Positions 45,253-61,863 of a DNA stretch of 64,000 nucleotides are shown here, one piece after another. The notes beneath the pieces are model-generated. The model was not told where the DNA came from, searched no databases, and worked only from the letters and a program-made list of their open reading frames with translations. This DNA comes from an uncultured Gammaproteobacteria bacterium (GTDB taxonomy: Bacteria > Patescibacteriota > Microgenomatia > Levybacterales > UBA12049), in the NCBI GenBank assembly GCA_964490105.1, contig CAZAZU010000001.1, positions 580,174 to 644,173 on the forward strand. Reading direction: 5' to 3'. How positions within the stretch are numbered: the first letter of the stretch is position 1; each line of letters begins with the position of its first letter. The translations under genes and the position numbers were made by a program.

Positions 45253-46164
45253 ATGATACCCATATTTCCCTCATCGAAAAAGCTAGAGCTAACCGACAGA
45301 GAAGAAATAGAAAATTTCACAAAAAGTTTCGCCCCATATTCTGACTATAATTTTGTAAGCTTGTATTCCTATAACACTCAAAACTTAACTGAATTATCAT
45401 ACCTAAATAATAATCTCGTAATTTTATTCGAGGATTATATTACCGAAGAACCGGTTTACTCATTTATAGGTATAAATAATTTAGAAGACACTGCAAGAAA
45501 ACTTTTAGATAGAGCTCACGAATTAAATATACTTGATCAATTAAAATTAATTCCTGAAGGAAATTTTGGCGAGCACATTCATGGAATTCCAGGATTTGAC
45601 GCTATAGAAGATCCCGATAATTTTGATTACATTTTATCAGTTGATAAATTAAGTAAGCTCGAAGGAGGGGAGTTCCAAGACAAAAGAAATTTATATAATA
45701 GATTTGGTATTGAAAATCCTGATGCAGAGATAAAAAAATTAGATCTAACTAATAGTCAAACTAAAGATGAGATTTTAAATCTTTTTGATACTTGGGTAGA
45801 ACGAAAAGGAAAATCAATCGAAGAAACAGAACATGAAAAAACTGCAATAAAAAGACTCCTAAAAGCTTCTAACTTTTTTAATCTAATTTCAATTGGAATT
45901 TTTAAAAATAACAGACTAATAAGTTTCGCTATTTCTGAAATTGTAAATAATAACTTCTCAGTATTTCACTTTGTTAAAGCAGACATTGAATTTAAAGGTA
46001 ATTTTGAAACCACATATAAAACATTAGCAAGTGAATTAAAAAAAAGTGGAGTTTTATTTATTAATTACGAACAACATTTAGGAATTGAGAATTTGAAAAA
46101 ATCTAAAGAACTATGGAGGCCTGTGGGATTTTTAAAAAAATATACAATTTCAAAAATTGATTAA
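45253..46164 (+). CDS. Hypothetical protein; a weak guess is a DUF2156/FemAB-like acyltransferase fold
   Basis: 303 aa, host-like composition, no motif I can state with confidence. Confidence 0.35.
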   Translation: MIPIFPSSKKLELTDREEIENFTKSFAPYSDYNFVSLYSYNTQNLTELSYLNNNLVILFEDYITEEPVYSFIGINNLEDTARKLLDRAHELNILDQLKLIPEGNFGEHIHGIPGFDAIEDPDNFDYILSVDKLSKLEGGEFQDKRNLYNRFGIENPDAEIKKLDLTNSQTKDEILNLFDTWVERKGKSIEETEHEKTAIKRLLKASNFFNLISIGIFKNNRLISFAISEIVNNNFSVFHFVKADIEFKGNFETTYKTLASELKKSGVLFINYEQHLGIENLKKSKELWRPVGFLKKYTISKID

Positions 46165-47554: not shown

Positions 47555-47638
47555 AACCTAATCAGTATATAAGGAAATATTAAAAAAATTCAAGCCTCAT
47601 AGTTTCCTATAGGGGTTAATTGATTCAATCTAGGGTAA

Positions 47639-49774
47639 TTATTCAACTCTTCCCGTGAAGGTGGAGGCGGCTTTCATTTGAGCCTGAATGTTTTGTGGAA
47701 CTTCATCATAGTGCGAAGGCTCCATGTAATACGAAGCTCTTCCCTGAGTCATAGACCTTAAGATCGTAGCGTATCCTGATAATTCTGAGAGAGGAACCAT
47801 AGCGTTAATGATTGTCGCTTTTCCTCGATCTTCACTTCCGGAAATCTGTGCTCTTTTACTAGACAAATCTCCAATTACATCTCCTAAAAATTCTGATGGA
47901 GTTGTAACTTCTACCTTCATAATAGGCTCTAAAAGTGTAAGTTTTGCATTTTGAGCTGCTATTTGAAGGGCTTTTGAAGCTGCAATTTTGAATGCGATTT
48001 CTGAAGAGTCCACGTCATGGAAAGATCCATCATAAACTTCTACACTCATATCTACCACAGGGTATCCTAAGTAAATTCCGTTTTCCTCAGACTCGATTAC
48101 TCCTTTTTGAATAGCTTTTATAAACTCTGCAGGAATTGCTCCTCCCTTAATACTATCTATAAATTCATTTCCCTCTCCTCTTGGTTTTGGCTTGATTCTT
48201 AAGAAACAGTGTCCGTACTGTCCGCGTCCTCCAGACTGACGAATATATTTTCCTTCTCCTGTTGCTTCTTCTTTAATTGTTTCTTTATAAGCTACCTGAG
48301 GAGCTCCTACATTAGCTTCAACTCCAAAGTCTGATTTCATAGTATTAACTTTAACCTCAAGCTGAAGCTCTCCAACCCCTGAGATAATAGTCTGATTTGT
48401 TTCATGATTTGTTTTAACCTGGAAAGTTGGATCTTCGTCCATAAGGCGCTTTAATGCTATGCCGAGCTTCTCCTGATCTGATTTAGTCTTTGGTTCAATT
48501 GCTAAAGAAATAACAGGTTCTGGGAAAGTAATTTTTTCTAAAACTATTGGATTTGCTTCATCACAAAGTGTATCTCCTGTGATGGTTTCTTTAAGTCCTA
48601 CAATTGCGACGATTTCTCCTGCATACGCCTCGTCAATTTCTTCTCTTTGATTTGAATGCATAAGAAGAAGACGGCCAACGCGCTCTGTATTATCTTTTGT
48701 AGAGTTATAAATATAACTTCCAGATTTAATTTTTCCAGAATAAACTCTATAAAAAGTTAATTTTCCAACGTGAGGATCATTTTGAATTTTAAAAGCAAGC
48801 CCTGCAAGAGGAGCATCTGCTACTAGCTGGCGGGTTTCTTCTGCATCAGTTTTAGGATTTATTCCTTTTACTTCTTTAAGATCTACTGGGGATGGCAGAT
48901 ATTCAACAACAGCGTCAAGAAGTGGCTGTACTCCTTTGTTTCGAAGAGAAGTACCTGCATAAATTGGAACTAATTTATATGCGATAACTGCGCGTCTCAA
49001 TGCCGCTCTTAGTTCTTCAACACTTGGCTCTGTTCCATTTAAGTATTTATCTAGTAATGCGTCATCTGTTTCTGAAATTTTTTCAATAAGTTTATGTCTA
49101 TACTCATCAACTGCCACTTTCATTTCCTCTGGAATATCATCATTTACTTCGTATTTTGCTCCTAATTCATCTCCGCCCCATCTGATTGCTTTGCGGGTTA
49201 AAAGGTCAACGTTTCCTACATAAGTTTGCTCACTTCCAATTGGAAGAACCATGATTGCGGTATTTGCTCCAAGCCTGTCTTCAATAGATTTAACAGTAGC
49301 TAAAAAATCCGCTCCTAGTTTATCCATTTTGTTGATGAAACAAATTCTAGGAACCTTATATTTATCAGCTTGTCTCCAAACTGTTTCTGACTGGGATTGA
49401 ACTCCCTCTTCTGCGTCAAGAACTGTAATTCCTCCGTCCAAAACTCTTAGAGAGCGCTCTACTTCAGCTGTAAAGTCTACGTGACCTGGAGTATCAATAA
49501 TGTTAAATCTGTGCTCTATGCCCTTTTGTGAGCCTTCAGTTGGGGTCCAGAATGCAGTAGTAGCAGCACTTACAATGGTAATTCCGCGCTCTCTTTCTTC
49601 CTTCATCCAGTCCATGACTGTATTTCCCTCATCGATATCTCCGATTTTGTGAGTTTTTCCAGTGTAGTAAAGAATGCGCTCTGTAGTGGTCGTTTTTCCC
49701 GCATCAATATGCGCGATAATTCCGATGTTTCGGATCTTTTCTAAATCAAAATGTCTATTAGATGAATCAGCCAT
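47639..49774 (-). CDS. fusA: Elongation factor G
   Basis: 711 aa: NIGIIAHIDAGKTTTTERIL... with the full EF-G domain set. Confidence 0.95.
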   Translation of the reverse strand: MADSSNRHFDLEKIRNIGIIAHIDAGKTTTTERILYYTGKTHKIGDIDEGNTVMDWMKEERERGITIVSAATTAFWTPTEGSQKGIEHRFNIIDTPGHVDFTAEVERSLRVLDGGITVLDAEEGVQSQSETVWRQADKYKVPRICFINKMDKLGADFLATVKSIEDRLGANTAIMVLPIGSEQTYVGNVDLLTRKAIRWGGDELGAKYEVNDDIPEEMKVAVDEYRHKLIEKISETDDALLDKYLNGTEPSVEELRAALRRAVIAYKLVPIYAGTSLRNKGVQPLLDAVVEYLPSPVDLKEVKGINPKTDAEETRQLVADAPLAGLAFKIQNDPHVGKLTFYRVYSGKIKSGSYIYNSTKDNTERVGRLLLMHSNQREEIDEAYAGEIVAIVGLKETITGDTLCDEANPIVLEKITFPEPVISLAIEPKTKSDQEKLGIALKRLMDEDPTFQVKTNHETNQTIISGVGELQLEVKVNTMKSDFGVEANVGAPQVAYKETIKEEATGEGKYIRQSGGRGQYGHCFLRIKPKPRGEGNEFIDSIKGGAIPAEFIKAIQKGVIESEENGIYLGYPVVDMSVEVYDGSFHDVDSSEIAFKIAASKALQIAAQNAKLTLLEPIMKVEVTTPSEFLGDVIGDLSSKRAQISGSEDRGKATIINAMVPLSELSGYATILRSMTQGRASYYMEPSHYDEVPQNIQAQMKAASTFTGRVE

Positions 49775-49791
49775 AAATTAAATAAAACTTT

Positions 49792-49830
49792 AAAAAAGCT
49801 CCCACAAATGGAAGCTAAATGAGTATACCA
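49792..49830 (-). promoter_or_regulatory. Extended -10 promoter (TGgTATACT) plus 5'-terminal stem-loop and U6 leader for fusA
   Basis: Minus strand: tgtggTATACTcatttaGCTTCCAtttgTGGGAGC TTTTTT aaagttttatttaat ATG. The hairpin has one mismatch. No SD. Confidence 0.45.
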
Positions 49831-49847
49831 CAAAATCTTTTTAGAAT

Positions 49848-50399
49848 CTATAGAATTGTTCCGAATTTTTTGTTTTTCTTTGTATTCTTTATAAATGAAT
49901 TTAAGCGTCTTTCGTAATCTTCCATTCTTTTTTGCTTTTTAGCATCCTCTATGTAATAAATCCTAAGTCTTTTATAGAGATCGTCAAAGGCTTGATAGTT
50001 CTTCCAGACTTCCGGATCTGTCTTTAATGCTTTTTCTGTTTCAGGAGACAATATGACTGGTTTTTCAGAAAGATCCACTCCTACTAGTGCCTCTATTCCA
50101 TATGGAGTCATAAGCTTTGATTTAATCAAACGTCTTGCTCGTTCTTTATTTAGCTCTGACCAATTTGACTTAGCTCTTCTTGGTGTAAATCGCTGAATAG
50201 TTGAATCCTGATCCCGTTTTTTAACCACCCCGTCTATCCATCCAAAACACAACGCTTCTTCAACTGCCTCATTATAAGGAAGTGAAAGCTTTCCTGATGC
50301 CTTTTTATAGAAGACAAACCATACTTCTTTTTCCTTATTGTGGTTTTTCTCAAGCCACTCTCGCCACTCTTTTCTATCCTTTGCATAAAAACTATTCAT
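49848..50399 (-). CDS. YdeI/OmpD-associated (OmdA) family protein
   Basis: 183 aa: EAVEEALCFGWIDGVVKKRD, a family signature. Confidence 0.55.
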   Translation of the reverse strand: MNSFYAKDRKEWREWLEKNHNKEKEVWFVFYKKASGKLSLPYNEAVEEALCFGWIDGVVKKRDQDSTIQRFTPRRAKSNWSELNKERARRLIKSKLMTPYGIEALVGVDLSEKPVILSPETEKALKTDPEVWKNYQAFDDLYKRLRIYYIEDAKKQKRMEDYERRLNSFIKNTKKNKKFGTIL

Positions 50400-50467
50400 A
50401 AACTAATTATATTACTTTTCCTGGAATCAAAACTGCACGATACATCGATATATCGATATATGATGCA

Positions 50468-51379
50468 TTAAGAGGGTTTTTCTGAAGTTTTCGGCCCATC
50501 TACAAATATCATGTCTACGAAATTATCAACTAACCCTCTTACCAGTTCTCCCCAAAGCTCTAATCTAATTCTCCAAAGCTCTTTTCCTCCATCCAAAAGT
50601 CTTGCAGGTATATGCTCACCCACCAAATCCTTGGGCGATCTTGATGCTACTGAAGAATACACACCTTTTTCTATAATCGCATCTATTCCCTTAGTCATTG
50701 CTAAATCTACGCTTGTTTCAGCGATACCCAAAACTTTTCCTCTTACATCAAGAAGCTTTGCCAAATGCGCATCAACTTTTCCTCTATACTCTCCTTTTCC
50801 CTGGACGCTAGATAGTTGAATCGGAAGCTTCTTTTCCCTGCGGCTATAAGGAGGAATTCCAGATCTTCCTGGATGAACCCTTGTAGTTATACCAACCAAA
50901 GTAGTTTTATTTTTAGGATAACCTTTATACTTTCTCCACCAATCTTTCCCCTCAACTCCATCAATGTGAATATCTCTAGATGAGATTAAATCACCAAGTC
51001 TTTCACCTTTTATTTGCTGTCCTGGTATATAAAGCCTACCAAGCTCAATTCCTGCGTCTATTTGTATCGGCCTAGGTGCATAATTTCTAACTGGCGCTTG
51101 AACCTCAAATCCATAGTTTAATTCCCCCTCTGCGATCCCTTGAGCATCTACCTGCTCTCCTATTTTTAATGCAGCACCTTCTTGAAAAGCAAAATGCATT
51201 TGAGCATTTCTACTTCTAGCAGACTCTTCTACTCCTGCAAAATCTACTTTTCTAGTACCGGGAACATTACCCGATGAAATTAGAACTTTTGCATATCCAT
51301 ACTCAAAAGCAGGAATCTCGACTCCTTTCACAACTATTAAACCTGCTCCTCGCCAAGCTTGCATTTCTACCTCTGCCAT
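50468..51379 (-). CDS. Hypothetical protein, GC-enriched and of atypical composition
   Basis: 303-aa ORF, rich in G, V, A and R, with no recognisable motif. Confidence 0.4.
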   Translation of the reverse strand: MAEVEMQAWRGAGLIVVKGVEIPAFEYGYAKVLISSGNVPGTRKVDFAGVEESARSRNAQMHFAFQEGAALKIGEQVDAQGIAEGELNYGFEVQAPVRNYAPRPIQIDAGIELGRLYIPGQQIKGERLGDLISSRDIHIDGVEGKDWWRKYKGYPKNKTTLVGITTRVHPGRSGIPPYSRREKKLPIQLSSVQGKGEYRGKVDAHLAKLLDVRGKVLGIAETSVDLAMTKGIDAIIEKGVYSSVASRSPKDLVGEHIPARLLDGGKELWRIRLELWGELVRGLVDNFVDMIFVDGPKTSEKPS

Positions 51380-51417
51380 AGATGGGGAATTATATTCTAA
51401 AGGGGATTAAACTTCAA

Positions 51418-51846
51418 CTATAGGTTATGTTGTAGGTCGTTTTTTTGGGGTAGAGAAGTTACAGTAACCTTTAAGCCGGGTTTTTCTCCTTCTACTGCCT
51501 GTTGAGTTAGCGCAAACCCTTCCCTAGCAACAATTGCTAAATGTGCTGATTCCACTCCAGTTCTTAGTTCTGATTCTTGTCCAGTTAAAGATACACGGGG
51601 TGATACGCGGATAAATCTACCTAATTCTGTTCCAGATAGAATTTGGGCTATTGGTCCTAAATGAGAATCGACAGCATCTGATAATAGATGTGAATATAAC
51701 TCTGTTCTATGGCCAATTCCCTCTTTTATTCTTTGCTCTATTAAAGACAAAGCCATTAGCTCTCTTTCGATTAATTCAACATTATCAATTGGAAGATTAA
51801 CTTCTACAACAGGTCTGCCTGGTTTTGGCTCAACATCTCTAGTCAT
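51418..51846 (-). CDS. Hypothetical protein, GC-enriched; immediately upstream of the 303-aa gene
   Basis: 142-aa ORF. Its stop lies 5 nt from the rpsG stop side. Confidence 0.35.
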   Translation of the reverse strand: MTRDVEPKPGRPVVEVNLPIDNVELIERELMALSLIEQRIKEGIGHRTELYSHLLSDAVDSHLGPIAQILSGTELGRFIRVSPRVSLTGQESELRTGVESAHLAIVAREGFALTQQAVEGEKPGLKVTVTSLPQKNDLQHNL

Positions 51847-51851
51847 GGAAG

Positions 51852-52325
51852 TTAAATGCGGAAGTGGGAGAAAGCTTTGTTTGCGTCAGCCATTCTATGA
51901 ACATTATCTCTTTTCTTGATTGCCTCTCCTTGATTTGCTGCTGCGTCCATTATTTCTGCTGCTAATTTTTCTGCAAATGAATGATAATCTTTATTTGATT
52001 TAGAACGAGCTGCATCCACTATCCATCGAAGTGCTAGTGCTGTTCTTCTATCTCCTCTAACTTCGATCGGGATTTGATAACTTGCTCCTCCAACGCGTCT
52101 AGCTTTAATTTCTGTTTTTGGACCGATATTTTGTACTGCTTTTTCAAATAATGAAAGTGCGTCTTCTTTTTTTGCAAGAATTTCCATCATGTCATAAACA
52201 ATTCCTTGTGCAATTGATTTCTTGCCGTCTTTCATTATGTAATTAGCAAGTTTTGCTACCAAAAGATTGTTGTAAACTGCATCTCCCTCAATATGTCTTT
52301 TTTTACTTGCGTGTGCGTGTCTCAT
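51852..52325 (-). CDS. rpsG: 30S ribosomal protein uS7
   Basis: 157 aa: NNLLVAKLANYIMKDGKKSIAQGIVYD. Confidence 0.9.
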   Translation of the reverse strand: MRHAHASKKRHIEGDAVYNNLLVAKLANYIMKDGKKSIAQGIVYDMMEILAKKEDALSLFEKAVQNIGPKTEIKARRVGGASYQIPIEVRGDRRTALALRWIVDAARSKSNKDYHSFAEKLAAEIMDAAANQGEAIKKRDNVHRMADANKAFSHFRI

Positions 52326-52332
52326 AATTTAA

Positions 52333-52797
52333 TTAAGCTGCTGGAGCTTCAGCTGCCGGTGCTGCTGCTTTTGGCGCAGGTGCACCTTTTGATCCTCTCT
52401 TTGCTCCATATTTACTTCTTGAACTTTGCCTACCTACTACTCCAGCTAAATCTAATTTTCCTCGAACGATGTGATATTTTACTCCAGCTAAATCTTTTAC
52501 ACGTCCGCCTCTGACTAAAACAATTCCGTGTTCAGCTAAAGAATGACCTTCTCCCATGATATAAGCTGTAACTTCAGTTCTATTTGATAATTTTACTCTA
52601 GCTACTTTTCGAAGAGCCGAATTAGGTTTTCTAGGAGTCATAGTTTTAACTAAAGTTACAACTCCTCTTTTTTGAGGTGAATTAACTTCAGTGTAAACTC
52701 TGTCCTTAGCATTATAAAGTTTTCTAAGTCCAGTAACCCTGACCTTTTTCATTCTTCTTTGTCTACCGTGCTTTGTAAGTTGTGATAGTGTTGGCAT
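52333..52797 (-). CDS. rpsL: 30S ribosomal protein uS12 with Ala/Pro-rich C-terminal extension
   Basis: 154 aa: [12 protein letters not shown]...[16 protein letters not shown], plus a tail [18 protein letters not shown]. Confidence 0.9.
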
Positions 52798-52811
52798 ATT
52801 TTGGTTTTTAA

Positions 52812-55800
52812 TTATACAGCATCAGCGGCAGGAGCTTCAACTGTAGGTGCAGTTTCTGTTGGGGCAACAACTTCTGTAACTTCCTCTGCGTCTTCATCAA
52901 CTGTAATTCCGTCAACTGGGATTAAGCGTCCGATAATAACGTTCTCTTTAAGTCCGATTAATTTATCCTCTGCACCCTCAAGGGACGCTTCAGTTAACAC
53001 TTTTGTTGTTTCCTGGAATGATGCAGCTGAAAGCCATGAATCTGAGAATAATGATGACTTTGTAACTCCAAGAATAGTCTGTCTTGCTGTTGCTGGTTCT
53101 CCACCCTGAGTTAAGATTTCCGCATTAATTTCTTCAAATCTTGTTCTTGTTATAAAGTCTCCAGGAATTAAAGATGAATCTCCAACTGTTTCAATTACAA
53201 CTTTATCAGACATTTTTCTAAGAATTACTTCAAAATGCTTATCGTTAATTGCGATTCCCTGCGATTCATAAACTTTTTGAGCTTCAGTTATTACATATCT
53301 TTGTGCGTCAATTAGCCCTGTAATCTTGAGAACCTCTTTAGGATCCAGATAACCTTGTGCAAATTGAGTTCCAACACTTACTTCTTGTCCATCTTTTACA
53401 GTTAGATTTGAAGCTAACGGGATGAAATATTCTCTTTCTTCAACTGGCTTTCTGTGTGAAGCAACCTTAAGAAGATATCCATCATCGCTTGTTTCAATTG
53501 TAAGTTTTCCAGATGTTTCAGAAATAGGAGATAACGCTTTTGGAGTTCTCATTTCAAAAAGTTCTTCAACTCTAGGCAAACCATGGGTAACGTCCTGCAT
53601 AACAGCTCCAGCAACATATCTGGTTCTCATAGTAAGCTGTGTTCCAGGCTCTCCGATAGATTGAGCTGCTACTACTCCGACAGGCACTCCAAGTGCTACT
53701 TTTCTTCTTACTGAATAATCCCATCCATAACAGTTAGAACACATTCCGTATTTAAGCTCACATGTTATTGCTGATCTTACAATTGCTTCTTGAATATCTT
53801 CTGTAGCAATCTCAGCAACCTTGTCTTCTGTAATTTCCTGACCAGCTTTTACGATTGGCTTCTTAGTCTTTGGAGAAATTATATTTTCAGCTGCAATTCT
53901 TCCAAGAATTCTGTCATGGAAAGTAGCAGTTCTATCTGGATCCAAAGCCGAAATCTTAATACCATTCTTAGTTCCGCAATCTTCAGTTTTAATGATCATG
54001 TCATGAGACACATCAACTAATCTTCTTGTTAGGTATCCAGCGTTTGCAGTCTTAAGAGCTGAGTCGGTTAATCCTTTTCTAGATCCGCGAGCTGAAGCTA
54101 CGTATTCAAAAATTGAAAGTCCTTCTCTAAAATTAGACTTAATAGGAAGCTCAATAATCTTTCCAAGCGGATCCATGATAAGTCCTCTCATCGCAGAAAG
54201 CTGTTTTAGCTGTTCTTTTCCAGCTCTAGCTCCTTCAGAATCGATAATTGTTCTAATAACATTTCCAGTTGTTAACAAGTCCCAAGTCATGTCAGCGATT
54301 CTCTCTGTTGTTGAAAGCCAAACGTTATTTGAAAGTCTTTTTCTTTCATCGTTTGTAATAAGTCCTTTTTGATATTCGAGGTCTATTTCTGCGATTTTTT
54401 CTTCGGCTTCGTCAATAATCTTGTCTTTTCCTTGAACTAGTGCGGTATCAAAAACAGATACTGAAATTCCAGAAACTGTTGAACCATAGAATCCGAGTGT
54501 TTTAATGTTATCGATTAATTCCTCAACCTCAAGTGAATTTGAAACTTTCATAGCTCTGGTAATTAATTTTTTAATACCGCTTGCTTTTACTGGCTCGTTC
54601 ATAAATCCAAGAGACTCTGGTAAATGTTCGTTAAACATAAGACGTCCGATAGATGTTTCTATGATTTCACCGTTTACTCTAACCTTAATTGGCTGTCTTA
54701 GCTTTAATCTTCCGTATGTATGAGCAAGTAATGCGTCATTTATGTCAGAAAATATCTCTTCATCTTCTGGTTTAACTTCGGTTCTCAAACTTTCATCAAT
54801 TGAAGTTAGATAGAAAACTCCAACAGCCATTTCTTTATTTGGAAGCGTAATAGGAGCTCCATCAGCTGGCTTTAAGAGATTTTCTCTAGGCATCATAAGC
54901 TCAATTGCTTCTTTTTGTGCGTTTTCACTTAAAGGAATGTGAACAGCCATCTGGTCTCCGTCAAAATCAGCATTAAATCCGCTACAAACACAAGGGTGTA
55001 ATTGAATCGCAGCTCCCTCGATAAGAACTGGATAGAAAGCCTGAATACCTAATTTATGTAGTGTTGGAGCACGATTAAGTAAAACTGGATGATTCTTTGT
55101 AATTTCTTCTAAGATATCAAAAACCTCAGGCGGTCTTTTCTCGATAAATCTCTTTGCTGATTTAATATTTGGCGCAAAACCTCTGACAATTACTTCGCGA
55201 AGTACGAATGGCTTAAACATTTCAAGCGCCATTTCTTTTGGAATTCCGCACTCAGATAGCTTCAAATTAGGTCCGACAACGATAACTGATCGACCTGAAT
55301 AATCTACTCTTTTTCCAAGTAAATTCTGTCTAAACCTTCCCTGTTTTCCTCTTAACATGTCGGAAAGAGATCTTAACGGTGATTGAACTACTTGAGTTCC
55401 GCGCTGGGAAGCATCAATTAATGAGTCTACTGATTCCTGAAGCATTCTTTTTTCATTTCTTAAAATAATTTCAGGTGCTCCAAGTGAAATAAGATGCTTC
55501 AAGCGATTATTTCTGTTAATTACTCTTCTATATAAATCGTTTAGATCACTAGTCGCAAATCTTCCGCCTGATAACTGAACCATAGGCCTAAGATCTGGTG
55601 GAATAACAGGAAGAACAGTGTAGACCATGTCTTTTGGAGAAACTCCAGCTTTTCTAATGACTTCAAGAAGTCTCAAACGCTTAACGAGTTTTAGATATTT
55701 TTGTCCTTTTGCTTTTTCTACTTCTTTTCTAAGTTCAATTATTAAATTATCGATATTTAGCTTCTCGATTAGTTCCAAAAGTCCTTCTGCTCCTGTTTTA

Positions 55801-56603
55801 AAGGTAAAGAAGATTGGAATATCATATTCCAAAACCTTAAAGTATTCGTCCTCTGAAAGAACTGATCCAGGCTTAAGACTTTTCACTAAAGCTGTTAATG
55901 CATCTGCGATTTCATCAATTTTCTTAGATTCCGCTGAAACCCTTTCATTAATTCTAAGAATTCTCTGTTTCTTTGAGAGTTCAATTTCCTGCTCCATTAA
56001 TTCTTTTTGAGTAGTATTAGATTTTCCAGCTGACTTTAATTTTTCCTTAACCTCTTCTTCAATTGCTTTTTCCTCGACTTCTGCATCTTTTTTAAGATTT
56101 GCTTTTCGGTCTTCTATTACTTTTGCAAAACCCTCTAGAGCTTTTTTCTTCTTGTCATCCTCAATGGATGTAACTAAATATGAAGCATAATAAATGACTG
56201 ATTCTAAGTCTTTTTGAGACATGTCCAGAATCAGACTTAAAGGTGAGCTTGATCCTTTAAAGTACCAAACGTGAGCAACAGGGGAAGCAAGTCCGATGTG
56301 ACCCATTCTTTCGCGCCTAACGCGTGACAATGTAACTTCAACTCCGCATTTATCACAGATTATTCCTCTATATCTAATTCTCTTGTATTTTCCGCAATAA
56401 CATTCCCAGTCTTTCGTAGGCCCGAATATTCTTTCATCAAATAATCCATCTTTTTCAGGTCTAAGCGTTCTGTAATTGATAGTTTCAGGCTTTGTTACTT
56501 CTCCATAACTCCAGCCCATAACATCTTCTTTTCCGGCTACTAAAACCTTTAAGGATTGGAAATCCAAAATACTAATGTCTTTCATTTTTTTATTCTTATC
56601 CAT
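52812..56603 (-). CDS. rpoC: DNA-directed RNA polymerase subunit beta'
   Basis: 1263 aa. Zn-finger [23 protein letters not shown] and the catalytic [12 protein letters not shown]. Confidence 0.95.
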
Positions 56604-59600
56604 TTATTTCTCCTTCTGTAACTCCTTCTAAATCAGCTGCGCTAGGTTCAACTTCTCCTGATGCTGTTGCTTCATCTACTCCTGCTTCTTCTGTTACTAC
56701 GTCTTCTCCGCCTAACTCTTTTTCCATTTCCTTAGCTTCTTCTTCAATCTTTTCGTCTGCTTTTGCTTCTTTCATAGGCTCCACCATAGTTGGCTCAGCT
56801 ACAATTTGTGCTCCCATTGGAACCACATTTAGTCCTAGTGCTTGAAGCTCTTTAATAAGAACTTTAAATGATTCTGGAACCTTAGGTGTTGGAATTGCAG
56901 TTCCCTTTACGATTGCCTCAAATGCTTTTGCACGTCCGACCACGTCATCAGACTTGATCGTTAACATTTCCTGTAGTGTATAACGTGCGCGATGAGATTC
57001 CAATGCCCAAACTTCCATCTCTCCAAGTCTTTGACCTCCCATTTGTGCCTTTCCTCCAAGAGGTTGCTGTGTAACAAGTGAGTATGGTCCTGTACTTCTT
57101 GCATGAGTCTTGTCCTCAACCATGTGGATAAGCTTCATAATGTATGAGACTCCCACAACTACTGCTCCATCATAAGCTTCTCCGGTTCTAGAGTCATATA
57201 ATTTAGCTTTTCCATTTTCTGGGAGCCCTGAAGCCTTAAGCTCAGCGATAATATTATTTTCGTCTACTTTTTCAAAAACAGGAAGTCCGACTTTCTTTCC
57301 CTGTACTAATGCTGCCCAACCAAGATGAGCTTCAAGAAGCTGTCCCAAGTTCATACGAGCAAGTACTGAAACCGGAGAAATAATAATGTCGACCGGTGTT
57401 CCGTCTTCGAGATATGGCATATCTACTACAGGAACGATTTTAGAAATAACTCCTTTATTTCCGTGGCGTCCTGCCAATTTATCTCCAACTACAACGTGTC
57501 TGAATTGAGCAACCTCAACTATAATCTTTCTAAGACATCCAGGCTCTAGTTCATCTCCCTTTTTGCGATCTAAAACTTGAATAGAAATAACTGTTCCTCT
57601 TTCACCGTTTGGCATTCTTAAAGATGTATCTCTAACTTCTCTTGCTTGTTCTCCGAAAATAGCGCGTAATAATCTTTCCTCTGCTGTTAATTCTGTTTCA
57701 CCTTTTGGCGCAATTTTTCCAACAAGAATGTCTCCAGGTCCTACTTCTGAAGATAAAACTACAACTCCATCTTCGTCCAAATTAGCTAAATCTTCTTCTG
57801 ATACATTTGGAATATCTCTAGTTGTTTCTTCAGGACCTAATTTGGTCTCAACTACTGCAGCTTCATATTTTTCGATGTGAATTGAAGAAAGAACGTCTTC
57901 TTTTACTAATCTATCTGAAATAACAATAGCGTCTTCATATCCAAGTCCGTCATATGAAGCATATGCGATAAGAAGATTCTGTCCAAGAGCTAATTCTCCA
58001 CCCTGTGAAGATGGTCCATCAACTAAAAGATCTCCTTTTTTAACTTTTTGACCAGTCGTTACCATTGCTCTTTGAGTATAAGCTGTAGCCTGTGAGGTTC
58101 TTTGGAATGATTCGATTTTATAAGTTATTTCTTCTTTGCCTTTTCCCTTGAATACAACTTTGTCTCCGTCAGCATAAACTATTTCTCCATCTTCTGGAGC
58201 TCTAGCAACACGTCCCATAACTTGGGATACCATTTTTTCCATTCCAGTTCCAACAATTGGACTCTGAGGAATAACAAGCGGTACTGCTTGAGACTGCATG
58301 TGGGTTCCCATAAGCGCTCTGTTAGCTTCATCATGAGAAACAAAAGGAATAAGGGATGCTGCTGTTCCTACAACTTGACGTGGAACTACATCGATATATT
58401 CAATTTTTTCTTTCTCTACTTCAATAAATTCTCCCTTATATCTAACAGGAACTCTTTCATTTGTAATTGTCTGGTCCTCATTTAATACGTCTGAGTGAGT
58501 AATATATTTTTCTCTCTCGTCATCTGCTGCCATATAAACGATTTCATTCGTTGCAGTACTTACTGTTTTATTTCCTTTTTTAGTATGAGTTACTTTTCTA
58601 TATGGGGTTTCTAAGAAACCATATTGGTTTACTCTTGAATATAAAGCCAAGTATGTTACGAGTCCGATGTTCGGACCTTCAGGACTACGAATCGGACAAA
58701 TTCTTCCATACTGTGAAGAATTAATATCACGAATTGAGAAAGCAGCTCTTTCTCTAGAGATTCCACCGGTTCCCATAACTGTTAAACGGTTAAGGTTATC
58801 GATTTCTGAAAGTGGATTTGTCTGGTCTAGGATTGTTGAAAGCTGAGAGGTTCTGAAGAATTCGTTTATTGAGGCCATAATCGGTCTAGCATTAATAAGT
58901 CCAGCAATTGTAACTGGGACTTCTGGAGTAATAAGTGACATTCTTTCTTTAATACTTCTTTCAAGTCTTAAAACTCCAACTCTAAATGCTGTTGAAGCTA
59001 CTAATTCTCCAACTCTTCTTACACGTCTATTTGCGAGTGAATCGATATCGTCAACTCCATCCTGTCCTTTTGAAAGAGCGATTAAAAATGAGATTGTTGC
59101 GATAATGTCATCAATTGTAAGAATTTTTTCCTCTGTTGGATTAAATCCTGGTACGTTTTTAAGTTTTTTATTCATCTTATAACGTCCGACGTCTCCAAGA
59201 TCATATCTTCTGTTATTGAAAAACATTCCAAAGAAGTTTTCTTTAACTTTGTCCAAAACTACTGGTTCTCCTGGATGCATTTTCTTAAAAATTTCGATAA
59301 GAGCTGCGTTTTGTGAATCAGTTTCATCTTTTGTAAGAGTGTTATTTATGAAATTTGTTTTTCCATCGGCTTCTGCATCTTTGAATTTAGATCTAATTAA
59401 ATCGTTATCTGATACTCCAATCGCTCTAAGGAAAGTTGAGGCCAAAAACTTTCTTCTTCTGTCAATTTTTACTGTAATTGTTTCGTAACGGGTAGTTGTA
59501 AATTCAAGCCATGATCCATGAACTGGTCTAATTTCTGCAGTGTAAAGAGTTTGTCCTGTTACTACATCTTGAGTTGAAGTAAAGAAAACTCCAGGGGATC

Positions 59601-60027
59601 TAACAAGCTGATTTACGATTGCGCGTTCAATTCCATTGATAATAAATGTTCCGCGTTCTGTCATTCTTGGGATATCTCCTAGGAAAACTTCTTGATCGAT
59701 TTCTGCTTCTGTTTTTTTGTTAGTGAGGGTTGCTTTTACATAAAGAGGTGCGTCGTAGGTGAGTCCTTTAATGAGACAAAGAGTAGGCTCATTAGTTGGC
59801 TTTCCAATTCTATAATCCTTAAGGGTAAGAGTCCAGTTTTTTCCTGTGAAATCATCAATAGGAGATATCTCCTGTAAAACTTCTCCTATTCCAACTTCTT
59901 CAAACCATTTGTATGATTCGTGTTGAACTGTGAGAAGATCTAGCTCAGGGAGAACTGGAAAATTCTTTCCCCAGTCTTCACGAAGCTTAAAATTTGTCTT
60001 ATTGTCTTTAGAATCGGATTTAGGCAT
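56596..60027 (-). CDS. rpoB: DNA-directed RNA polymerase subunit beta
   Basis: 1143 aa, conserved beta-subunit blocks throughout. Overlaps the rpoC start by 8 nt. Acidic C-terminal tail. Confidence 0.95.
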   Translation of the reverse strand: MPKSDSKDNKTNFKLREDWGKNFPVLPELDLLTVQHESYKWFEEVGIGEVLQEISPIDDFTGKNWTLTLKDYRIGKPTNEPTLCLIKGLTYDAPLYVKATLTNKKTEAEIDQEVFLGDIPRMTERGTFIINGIERAIVNQLVRSPGVFFTSTQDVVTGQTLYTAEIRPVHGSWLEFTTTRYETITVKIDRRRKFLASTFLRAIGVSDNDLIRSKFKDAEADGKTNFINNTLTKDETDSQNAALIEIFKKMHPGEPVVLDKVKENFFGMFFNNRRYDLGDVGRYKMNKKLKNVPGFNPTEEKILTIDDIIATISFLIALSKGQDGVDDIDSLANRRVRRVGELVASTAFRVGVLRLERSIKERMSLITPEVPVTIAGLINARPIMASINEFFRTSQLSTILDQTNPLSEIDNLNRLTVMGTGGISRERAAFSIRDINSSQYGRICPIRSPEGPNIGLVTYLALYSRVNQYGFLETPYRKVTHTKKGNKTVSTATNEIVYMAADDEREKYITHSDVLNEDQTITNERVPVRYKGEFIEVEKEKIEYIDVVPRQVVGTAASLIPFVSHDEANRALMGTHMQSQAVPLVIPQSPIVGTGMEKMVSQVMGRVARAPEDGEIVYADGDKVVFKGKGKEEITYKIESFQRTSQATAYTQRAMVTTGQKVKKGDLLVDGPSSQGGELALGQNLLIAYASYDGLGYEDAIVISDRLVKEDVLSSIHIEKYEAAVVETKLGPEETTRDIPNVSEEDLANLDEDGVVVLSSEVGPGDILVGKIAPKGETELTAEERLLRAIFGEQAREVRDTSLRMPNGERGTVISIQVLDRKKGDELEPGCLRKIIVEVAQFRHVVVGDKLAGRHGNKGVISKIVPVVDMPYLEDGTPVDIIISPVSVLARMNLGQLLEAHLGWAALVQGKKVGLPVFEKVDENNIIAELKASGLPENGKAKLYDSRTGEAYDGAVVVGVSYIMKLIHMVEDKTHARSTGPYSLVTQQPLGGKAQMGGQRLGEMEVWALESHRARYTLQEMLTIKSDDVVGRAKAFEAIVKGTAIPTPKVPESFKVLIKELQALGLNVVPMGAQIVAEPTMVEPMKEAKADEKIEEEAKEMEKELGGEDVVTEEAGVDEATASGEVEPSAADLEGVTEGEING

Positions 60028-60666: not shown

Positions 60667-60673
60667 TTAATCT

Positions 60674-60762
60674 GCATTAAGAGAGTCCGATCAATATCGG
60701 ACCGGCAACCGAGCCCTTCGACCAGCTCAGGGACGCGGTGCCATTCCAAAAAGGAAATGCGG
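60674..60762 (+). promoter_or_regulatory. SAM-riboswitch-like leader (SAM-I core features, apparently P4-less SAM-I/IV-type) upstream of metK
   Basis: GCATT...AATGC (P1). AAGAGAG. Hairpin TCCGATcaatATCGGA (P2). GGCAACC. A GC-rich P3. GGTGCCATTCC. Then TTCC-AAAAA-GGAA, which could sequester the AAGGA SD of the metK ATG at 60766. Confidence 0.5.
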
Positions 60763-60765
60763 CTT

Positions 60766-61863
60766 ATGAGCAAAAATATTTTTACTTCTGAATCTGTTAG
60801 CAATGGCCACCCGGATAAAATCTGTGATTCTATTTCTGACTCCATTTTAGATGCTGTTCTTGCAAAAGATAAATTTGGAAAAGTCGCAGTTGAATGTCTC
60901 GCAGCAAACAACAAACTTATTATAGCTGGCGAAGTGACAACTAATGCCAAAATAGACTTTGAAAAAATCGCTAGAAAAAGAATAAAAGATTTAGGCTATA
61001 CAAATCCTGATTTTAATTTCTCAGACAAATCAGATATCGAAGTTTACGTTCATGAACAGTCTCCCGAAATAGCCCGTGGAGTCAAGAAAAAAGGAGCAGG
61101 AGATCAGGGAATGATGTTTGGATATGCGTGTAGGGAAACCAAAACTCTAATGCCTTTACCTATTTCTATGGCTCACAGACTCGCTGAAGAACTGGACAAA
61201 AGTAAACAAAAACTCAAATATTTAAAACCTGACGGAAAAACTCAAGTAACCATAGAATACAAGAATGGTGTTCCTTACGAAGTCAAACAAGTTGTTATAG
61301 CAGTTCCTCATGATGAAAAAATAAAACTTGAACAAGTAAGAGAGGATGTTTTCAAATACATAGTCAAACCAGTTTTAGACGGTTTTGGGTTTAAATTTTC
61401 AATAAAAGATTTGATTCTAAACGGCACAGGAGTTTGGCATATGCCTGGACCCTCTTCAGATGCCGGACTCACAGGACGAAAAATAATAGTTGATACCTAT
61501 GGAGGATACGCGAGAGTTGGTGGAGGAGCTTTTTCTGGAAAAGATCCCACAAAAGTAGATAGATCCGGCGCATATGCCGCTAGATTTTTAGCAAAAAATA
61601 TTGTGGCTGCAAAACTCGCAGACAGAGCGGAAGTCAGACTTGCCTATTTTATTGGAGCTAAAAAACCTGTTATGCAGGAAGTGGAAACATTCGGGACTGA
61701 GAAAACATCGGATAAAGTCATTAAAGATTTTATGAGAAAAATTCTTAATACATCAGTCGAGGGAATTATTGATGGCTTGGATCTTAGACAACCAATTTAT
61801 TTAAAAACATCTTCTTACGGTCACTTCGGCCGCCCGGAATTTCCTTGGGAAAGGCTAGTCTAA
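60766..61863 (+). CDS. metK: S-adenosylmethionine synthetase
   Basis: MSKNIFTSESVSNGHPDKICDSISD...GAGDQGMMFGYA...GGGAFSGKDPTKVDRS. Start taken at the second ATG, which has AAGGA about 11 nt upstream; the track ORF starts at 60757. Confidence 0.9.
   Translation: MSKNIFTSESVSNGHPDKICDSISDSILDAVLAKDKFGKVAVECLAANNKLIIAGEVTTNAKIDFEKIARKRIKDLGYTNPDFNFSDKSDIEVYVHEQSPEIARGVKKKGAGDQGMMFGYACRETKTLMPLPISMAHRLAEELDKSKQKLKYLKPDGKTQVTIEYKNGVPYEVKQVVIAVPHDEKIKLEQVREDVFKYIVKPVLDGFGFKFSIKDLILNGTGVWHMPGPSSDAGLTGRKIIVDTYGGYARVGGGAFSGKDPTKVDRSGAYAARFLAKNIVAAKLADRAEVRLAYFIGAKKPVMQEVETFGTEKTSDKVIKDFMRKILNTSVEGIIDGLDLRQPIYLKTSSYGHFGRPEFPWERLV

Follow-up and report, generated by a model that had tools for sequence, protein, structure and literature searches.

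The 2'-deoxycytidine 5'-triphosphate (dCTP) deaminase Dcd is a homotrimer with inter-subunit active sites and a C-terminal lid, and we take its triad-like catalytic residues to be Ser111, Arg115 and Glu138 (Escherichia coli numbering). Monomeric dUTPases of the herpesviruses (e.g. that of Epstein-Barr virus, PDB 2WE1) have a single composite site in one chain. The Agrobacterium protein of PDB entry 2R9Q is a "long" two-domain dCTP deaminase of PF06559-type architecture; to our knowledge, this structural-genomics entry has no published biochemistry. Our literature searches on 2R9Q returned only unrelated papers, and those on PF06559, DUF8412, dCTP deaminase in Patescibacteria, the str operon in the candidate phyla radiation (CPR) and Dcd catalytic residues returned nothing relevant. 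At the level of gene order, in situ gene displacement within operons has reportedly been described (Omelchenko et al. 2003). Here, we present a locus that can be compared with all of these systems. It lies in a 64,000-nucleotide (nt) stretch, hereafter termed the window, of contig CAZAZU010000001.1 (assembly GCA_964490105.1, positions 580,174 to 644,173), which was deposited as an uncultured Gammaproteobacteria bacterium and is placed by GTDB in the Patescibacteriota (Levybacterales, UBA12049). Between rpsG, encoding ribosomal protein uS7 (S7), and fusA, encoding elongation factor G (EF-G), this genome carries genes for a 142-amino acid (aa) protein, a 303-aa protein and a 183-aa YdeI/OmdA-family protein; the first two are named for their open reading frames (ORFs), ORF142 and ORF303. 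Our main finding concerns ORF303, whose coding sequence (CDS) is replaced among close relatives with its surroundings left in place, and whose product is, judging from a predicted model, almost certainly a two-lobed protein of the dCTP deaminase/dUTPase fold.

The replacement emerged from comparisons with syntenic loci of relatives (designated by L numbers), for example L006, which carries the label Candidatus Levyibacteriota (Microgenomates, Patescibacteria). Compared with L001, L006 and L007, the window shows amino acid identities of 93-96% for S12, 89-96% for S7, 78-86% for the YdeI protein and 96-97% for EF-G vs 34-37% for ORF303, the most divergent of the 14 genes shared with L001. Across 11 loci, the ORF303 homologues fall into five or more allele types, with 26-44% identity between types; S7, by comparison, is 79-96% identical among the Levyibacteriota-like genomes compared. 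In nucleotide comparisons by blastn, the window and L006 are 88% identical up to the rpsG stop codon, show no similarity across the ORF303 CDS, and resume at 83% identity from 15 nt past its stop (position 50453), and the similarity of the window to both L006 and L001 breaks at 51851/51852. The pair L023 and L009 behaves alike: identity of 90% reaches to within 5 nt of the ATG, the CDS shows no similarity, and the alignment returns at 81% from the DUF8412 gene on.

Nonsynonymous divergence (dN) between ORF303 types is 0.61-0.67 vs 0.06-0.13 for YdeI in the same genome pairs. Within type B, the ratio of dN to synonymous divergence (dS) is 0.055-0.094 at a dS of ~1, and dS is similar to that of the flanks. 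Because dN is high between types and purifying selection is strong within them, we regard the types as old, constrained alleles and not as the products of a fast-evolving gene. The type-B allele of L024 is 97.3% identical to that of L001 in nucleotide sequence over the CDS and the 45-nt element that precedes it, vs 82.2% over rpsL-rpsG, and an ORF142-family gene is present in L024 only; this disparity in identity identifies a recent exchange of alleles. Replacement is thus limited to the CDS and has occurred recently at least once. Recombination is very likely the means of allele exchange, and homologous recombination in the conserved flanks would be its mechanism.

ORF303 has seven close homologues, with identities down to 35%, and a profile search of 1.84 billion representatives recovered 228 ORF303-like cluster representatives at E <=0.001, most of them full-length at ~300 aa. 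Other alleles, when compared, back the start codon at 51379; the protein also exists in a 298-aa database version, and an exact look-up of that version returned no record. In Pfam, neither ORF303 nor ORF142 found a match at E <=1, and NCBIfam and PHROGs had none for either; the curated profiles of the superfamily (Pfam DCD PF22769 and dUTPase PF00692, NCBIfam dcd/dut) thus all leave ORF303 unmatched. A scan of 85 ORF303-family members at E 0.01 yielded a single Pfam family, DCD (PF22769), matched by two of the 85 at E 7e-4. Five other allele types had no match in Pfam, the long two-domain DCD family (PF06559-type) was matched neither by ORF303 and the 85 members nor by 16 further members and alleles, and scans of larger members and fusions (P0133 and others) gave nothing informative. 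A profile search of the PDB with the family reached dUTPases at E 0.03.

The AlphaFold2 model built from the 85-sequence alignment has a predicted local distance difference test score (pLDDT) of 94.1 and a predicted template-modelling score of 0.91; an earlier model from seven sequences was mediocre (pLDDT 64.5). The model displays the characteristic beta-rich dUTPase/Dcd fold, and its two-lobe architecture can be superposed on 2R9Q over both lobes, with 10% of the aligned residues identical. Against the BFVD fold library, the model gave weak matches only, all of dUTPase type. Where the first-pass annotation, made from the DNA letters alone, had recorded a protein of unknown function and proposed structure prediction, the confident model narrows ORF303 to a predicted dCTP deaminase/dUTPase fold. 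The ORF303 family is accordingly a new one, which belongs to a known superfamily but lies outside all profile libraries.

Comparison by hhalign with E. coli Dcd (sequence from NC_000913.3) relates both halves of ORF303 to the same part of that enzyme. The N-terminal half aligned to Dcd residues 79-169 (E 0.003), pairing RSRxAQxG with RSSLARLG, and the "Ser motif" of the N-lobe, R55-S56-R57-x-A59-Q60-x-[G/H]62, thereby falls on Dcd R110-S111-S112-L-A114-R115-L-G117. The C-terminal half aligned to Dcd 88-142 (E 0.05-0.085) with D263 on D128 and E274 on E138, and the C-lobe series H256...D263-G-G...E274 falls on Dcd H125...D128-P-G...E138. In the N-lobe, the position of Dcd Glu138 is taken by P96, and the catalytic Glu is lost. 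Only two internal residues, S56 and E274, are shared by all 85 members; R55, R57, Q60, N99, R103, R115 and R199 are conserved in at least 86% of these members, and a set of Arg/Asn/Asp positions in at least 75%. Since both halves align to Dcd residues 88-142, the fold appears to be duplicated; a direct profile comparison of the N-half with the C-half detected no internal duplication (E 0.22). Because the lobes keep complementary motif halves, S56 in the N-lobe and E274 in the C-lobe, we infer one composite nucleotide-binding site at the lobe interface, with both residues in one pocket. The conservation pattern inclines us slightly toward an active enzyme, which would be a pyrimidine (d)NTP deaminase or diphosphatase; for the pyrimidine (d)NTP substrate itself, we place our confidence a little short of an even balance.

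The variable CDS is bordered by two candidate expression signals. Upstream, a 45-nt element (TTGAAG-17-TATAAT, 10 of 12 consensus positions, with TATAAT at 51389-51394) ends at the ORF303 ATG, and its pattern occurs twice in the window vs 0.16 times expected. It is kept ahead of every allele type in 12 loci, in front of CDSs that cannot be aligned. In the blastn comparison with the window, a 51-nt island of 86-94% nucleotide identity is flanked by dissimilar sequence; against L006, it extends 6 nt into ORF303. In a survey of start sites covering 67 window ORFs, a -10-like hexamer lies 3-15 nt before the start in 13 and a Shine-Dalgarno-like site precedes only 16, which makes leaderless-type initiation plausible. 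The element has the properties expected of a sigma-70-type promoter that would give a leaderless or very-short-leader mRNA, and it may double as an upstream homology anchor. A comparable site, CCTACAGTTGAAG-N18-TATAAT, is found in the 3' end of rpoC, upstream of rpsL (window 52811-52846, minus strand); the two have the 13-mer CCTAYAGTTGAAG in common, which may represent a lineage-specific extended -35 region or a coincidence in coding sequence.

Downstream, the hairpin that overlaps the ORF303 stop folds with -15.7 kcal/mol (z -2.9), and its L006 counterpart with -14.9 kcal/mol (z -2.9). The hairpin core CATATATCGATATATG, common to the window and L006, marks the downstream edge of the variable segment, and the structure would be suited to function as a terminator. 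Other loci display repeats nearby: a GC-rich inverted repeat, CTAGCCTCGCAAGGCC...GGCCTTGCG, follows the homologue in L001 (10892-10995) and L007 (1996-2112), and the motif TATAGGACTGAAATNGCTAATTATAGACATGAG is common to L001 and L009 (1312-1376), whose alleles are of different types; this intergenic sequence may represent a small repeat element. Closer to fusA, a leader composed of an extended -10 (TGTGGTATACT), a hairpin (AGCTTCCA-N4-TGGGAGCT) and a T-run is almost invariant in five loci (window, L001, L003, L006, L007), with pair-preserving changes (G-C to G-U, G-U to A-U) in L006 and L003. Its fold taken alone is not significant (z -0.9). The leader may terminate transcription of the island, stabilise the fusA mRNA as a 5' stem, do both, or serve as an attenuator; searches at Rfam gathering thresholds matched no known RNA family between rpsG and fusA.

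The ORF303 gene has long resided at this junction. The order rpsG ... homologue ... fusA recurs in L001, L003, L006, L007, L013, L019/L021 and L023; L009 and L014 cover the homologue-to-fusA part only, and the contigs of L005, L015, L016, L017 and L024, which stop short of fusA, place the homologue after rpsG. The layout of L001, L006 and L007 is rpsG - homologue - YdeI(183) - fusA without ORF142, that of L023 is rpsG - ORF142-family gene - homologue - DUF8412 - CBS - fusA, and that of L024 is rpsG - ORF142-family gene - homologue up to the contig end; L003 has an unrelated 149-aa ORF before the homologue, and L013 has a relative of that ORF after it. S7 of the window is 84-96% identical to that of L001, L003, L006 and L007. 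The homologue directly follows rpsG also in L015, L016 and L017, where S7 is 61-72% identical, and it lies inside a 6-kb rpsG-fusA island in L019/L021, where S7 is 54% identical. Because the order is kept even at these S7 identities of 54-72%, the island is old and lineage-wide, not a recent foreign insertion. Other cargo at the junction in relatives includes a putative DUF433/PIN-like pair, a CBS protein, a putative SET-like protein and an IS30 fragment. The L019/L021 island also holds, as putative genes named by sequence recognition, a DUF433-like/PIN-like pair, a RidA-like gene, an SDR and a cyclophilin.

Individual copies of the gene have peculiarities of their own. In L019 (2863-3767) and L021 (3983-4887), one frameshift near CCAAATATAAAAGG interrupts the homologue, and it is the same in both of these independent metagenome contigs. 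In L022 (319-1785), the reading frame of the homologue runs on into the C-terminal part of an IS30-family transposase, which indicates that insertion of the insertion sequence (IS) removed the last strand. Codon 13 of the window allele (51341-51343) is GGT (Gly) and all close type-A relatives have Asp; the substitution may impair function, may be tolerated, or may be a sequencing variant.

The ORF list of the window confirms three co-oriented, minus-strand ORFs in the rpsG-fusA gap, exactly where the first-pass annotation had placed a three-gene insertion (Table 1). That annotation had further described the two hypothetical proteins as GC-enriched, with a composition far from the host norm, and this description does not hold. 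For the 71 window ORFs used for composition, mean GC is 0.361 (standard deviation, SD, 0.037), GC at third codon positions (GC3) 0.234 (SD 0.055) and the summed fraction of Gly, Ala, Val and Arg (G+A+V+R) 0.277 (SD 0.066). The corresponding values are 0.406, 0.248 and 0.350 for ORF303 and 0.390, 0.197 and 0.296 for ORF142. A leave-one-out synonymous-codon score over 67 ORFs gives z = -0.33 for ORF303 and z = -0.08 for ORF142, and no compositional z-score of either exceeds ~1.2 in magnitude, the highest being that of ORF303 GC (z ~+1.2). By GC, GC3, amino acid content and codon usage, both genes are native in composition, not compositionally foreign. Values in the normal range were one of the two outcomes that the annotation itself had named as refuting, and its compositional part is accordingly refuted; the other, ORFs without conservation in any genome, did not arise, both genes being conserved.

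Table 1. Features of the rpsG-fusA region and the adjoining genes (window coordinates)
Feature	Position	Strand	Basis
rpoB	56596-60027	minus	
rpoC	52812-56603	minus	
rpsL	52333-52797	minus	
rpsG (uS7), upstream anchor, conserved flank	51852-52325	minus	ORF; orthologue with Pfam Ribosomal_S7
ORF142, small accessory protein gene	51418-51846	minus	Homologues, codon-position pattern
45-nt element, CCTATAGTTGAAG-N17-TATAAT-N10	51380-51424	minus	Promoter-like; ends at ORF303 ATG
ORF303, hypervariable core gene of island	50468-51379	minus	
Terminator-like hairpin overlapping ORF303 stop, then UUUU	50434-50467	minus	RNA fold, similarity to L006
183-aa YdeI/OmdA protein gene (DUF8412 + OmdA)	49848-50399	minus	Pfam
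fusA leader, extended -10 + hairpin + T-run	49797-49832	minus	Terminator-like site, near-invariant in five loci
fusA (EF-G), downstream anchor	47639-49774	minus	ORF; orthologue with Pfam EF-G domains

ORF142 has a history separate from that of ORF303. Relative to L001, L006 and L007, it sits on a clean insertion of ~426 nt (51425-51850). Its homologue P0009, directly 3' of rpsG in L012, is 85% identical, with differences at codon positions 1/2/3 of 21/13/41 (34 synonymous-only and 24 nonsynonymous codons), and a profile search assembled an eight-member family of 112-144 aa; genes of this family directly follow rpsG in L023 and L024 as well. The coding-type substitution pattern, together with the existence of a protein family, rules out a spurious ORF. 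To judge from its sequence, ORF142 is a genuine small accessory gene confined to some lineages. It starts 5 nt past the rpsG stop and has neither a Shine-Dalgarno-like nor a -10-like site, and in view of this spacing and the missing start signals its translation is probably coupled to that of rpsG. A Mop/TOBE-like character is possible for the C-terminal half: the family profile aligned weakly (E 0.016) with Azotobacter ModG, a Mop protein (1h9j), over an (S/A)R(N/D)xLxGxV ... GL pattern, and Pfam gave no TOBE match for ORF142 at E <=1. The family comprises two types that are 24-27% identical to each other, and these do not co-vary with ORF303 type, given that B, D and E alleles all stand behind an ORF142-family gene of ~90% nucleotide identity. 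This independent assortment argues against ORF142 as a cognate, toxin-antitoxin-like partner of ORF303, a reading that we reject. A second small accessory family, of 149-152 aa, is encoded before the ORF303 homologue in L003 (1863-2312) and after it in L013 (1152-1610), with a pairwise E of 3e-6; it has no Pfam match and no detectable relation to ORF142. Pfam scans of the other small neighbours gave nothing informative.

Of the neighbours of ORF303, the YdeI/DUF8412 gene is steadier than ORF142. The YdeI/OmdA identity assigned earlier to the 183-aa protein was borne out by Pfam, in which OmdA (PF13376) scores 38.3 bits against a cut-off of 25.6 (E 1.3e-9, residues 116-175); orthologues carry DUF8412 (PF28474) with or without OmdA. 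A gene of this kind lies 3' of the ORF303 homologue in 10 of the 11 Levyibacteriota-like loci with downstream sequence, as the DUF8412 part only in four. At the 78-86% identity noted above, the protein is not hypervariable, and its gene has a -10-like hexamer of its own 7 nt before the ATG.

We explain these observations by a resident island with a recombining deaminase-fold gene, a reading in which our belief modestly outweighs our doubt. ORF303 would be a self-contained expression unit, with the promoter-like element abutting its ATG and the terminator-like hairpin following its stop. Recombination would take place upstream in rpsG or the ORF142-family gene together with the 45-nt element, and downstream in the hairpin, ydeI and fusA, and the CDS alone would be swapped for anciently diverged alleles among close genomes. 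The likeliest cause of the diversity would be diversifying or frequency-dependent selection acting on a nucleotide enzyme of the cytoplasm, for example by phage-encoded inhibitors or through a role in nucleotide-pool defence. The reason for the diversity is speculative, and conflict as its driver is a tentative idea that we hold with more doubt than belief. An accessory or conflict role nevertheless fits better than essential housekeeping, because the gene is recurrently replaced and exists in frameshifted (L019/L021) and IS30-truncated (L022) copies. In an extended form, which we consider unlikely as a whole, the ORF303 family would be an effector or sensor of an unrecognised CPR conflict system, a single-chain enzyme of the dCTP deaminase fold that manipulates pyrimidine pools (e.g. 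on phage infection) or is the target of a phage inhibitor; anciently diverged alleles would be balanced and recombined via the str genes and the 45-nt leaderless promoter, and the ORF142-type, ORF149-type and DUF8412 proteins would be modulators.

Several points weigh against a recombining deaminase-fold gene engaged in conflict. The hhalign links to Dcd are statistically weak, with probabilities below 12%; a Gln (Q60) stands where Dcd has Arg115; ORF303 has no C-terminal lid or motif-5-like segment and ends ~9 residues past the last strand of the model; and the window allele has Gly at position 13 vs Asp in 81 of 85 members. The match to 2R9Q, the closest structure, with both lobes superposable at 10% identity, transfers fold, not function. 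Taken as a class, promoter-like matches show no enrichment in the region (11 vs 13.9 expected). Other shared genes are divergent as well, namely an LPG_synthase_C-like gene (45-52% identity) and another at 52%. Finally, a tie to defence is wanting: IMG/VR and the INPHARED phages hold no viral relatives of ORF303, and the PADLOC-DB defence models gave no match at E <=1 for ORF142, ORF303 or the 183-aa protein.

Some of these points suit a dCTP deaminase/dUTPase with an ordinary housekeeping task, the provision of dUMP for thymidylate synthesis in a reduced genome, whose gene lies in the str operon by chance and has undergone neutral xenologous in situ displacement, no conflict being involved. 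The fold and the invariant Ser and Glu would suit an active enzyme, the gene occupies the same locus in nearly all related genomes, selection within a type is strongly purifying (the dN/dS of 0.055-0.094 given above), codon usage is host-like, PADLOC and viral matches are absent, and in situ displacement within operons is a described phenomenon. If ORF303 were merely the dCTP deaminase of this lineage, the result would be a gain in annotation and an example of such displacement. We consider this somewhat unlikely: at least five types and a recent, 97%-identical transfer point to a turnover well above that normally seen in housekeeping enzymes, copies are frameshifted (L019/L021) or cut short by an IS (L022), and the Gln for Arg115 and the missing lid depart from canonical Dcd.

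The same departures, joined by the D13G change of the window allele, would suit a catalytically dead dUTPase-fold protein that binds a variable partner as a sensor, regulator or decoy, with partner co-evolution driving diversity, by analogy with herpesviral dUTPase-related proteins and with the signalling role of staphylococcal phage dUTPases. Extreme sequence divergence with the fold retained, and the variable small neighbours (ORF142 and ORF149/152 families), would be in keeping with such a protein. It is improbable nonetheless, given that all 85 members keep S56 and E274, accompanied by highly conserved Arg, Asp and Asn residues, as an active nucleotide site would need, that the small neighbours do not co-vary with ORF303 type (B, D, E), and that YdeI stays 78-86% identical across types. 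Least probable by far, and largely wrong as an interpretation, is the reading, built on the co-acquired cassette of the first-pass annotation, that ORF142 and ORF303 are a recent, foreign acquisition of atypical, G+C-rich composition: the genes are indeed adjacent and co-oriented, L023 and L024 repeat the order of an ORF142-type gene before an ORF303-type gene, and the GC of ORF303 is somewhat high (z ~+1.2), but GC3, amino acid composition and codon usage lie within the window range, both genes are conserved in relatives in an old, lineage-wide arrangement, ORF142 is an independent indel with a history and type assortment separate from ORF303, and the ORF list of the window has no integrase, transposase, phage or plasmid-like genes flanking the pair.

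Additional observations concern the surroundings of the island. The LPG_synthase_C-like gene of the window (45253-46164, plus strand; family name taken from the syntenic L001 gene) has a very low GC of 0.279 and is 45-52% identical to the syntenic gene of L001/L006, with neighbours at 86-92%; it is a second strongly divergent gene near the island. Two additional genes (132 or 210 aa, plus 283 aa) lie between fusA and the PvlArgDC gene in L001 (13787-15117) and L007 (4910-6494), and both are missing from the window (47555-47638) and L006, making this interval another indel hotspot beside the str cluster. A SAM-I/IV riboswitch (60669-60787, plus strand; 48.7 bits vs a gathering score of 41.1) is located 5' of the S-adenosylmethionine synthetase ORF (60757-61863) and overlaps its listed start, and the true start codon is therefore probably farther downstream.

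These results bear on both the protein family and the neighbourhood in which it resides. They provide a predicted fold-level identity for a family of at least 228 sequence clusters that profile libraries leave blank, and a case in which the duplication of a dUTPase fold with loss of complementary motifs can be tested. In one Microgenomates lineage, the family seems to characterise the rpsG-fusA junction, and its locus illustrates that a neighbourhood among the most conserved in bacteria can host cassette-like allele exchange with breakpoints at CDS edges. Where genomes measure ~0.8 Mb and hold few accessory genes, this locus may be one at which strains come into conflict with phage or host, and it could serve as a natural recombination marker for uncultured CPR populations. 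Leaderless promoters abutting start codons are also suggested as an expression mode in this genome.

In comparison with described systems, ORF303 combines familiar elements in a different arrangement. The canonical Dcd and bifunctional dCTP deaminase-dUTPase enzymes (E. coli Dcd; 1OGH, 2QXX, 4XJC) are homotrimers, whereas ORF303 is one chain of two predicted lobes with complementary motif halves; it further differs from Dcd in having Gln for Arg115 and no C-terminal lid, and its similarity is marginal (hhalign E 0.003-0.085, low probability). The single composite site proposed for ORF303 would be the same outcome as that reached, by analogy, in the monomeric herpesvirus dUTPases. Staphylococcal phage dUTPases (3ZEZ) are phage-encoded trimers with a variable insert, whereas ORF303 is chromosomal, two-lobed and divergent along its whole length. 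With xenologous in situ displacement and with variable hotspots flanked by core genes, the locus has in common a fixed operon position into which a distant homologue is swapped, with neighbours that stay collinear and similar. Unlike variable hotspots, which hold accessory genes, it carries a gene that is nearly universal at the locus, and unlike in situ displacement as otherwise described, the swaps of ORF303 are recurrent (at least five types) and encompass almost exactly one CDS, between a 45-nt element and a hairpin, inside the str cluster.

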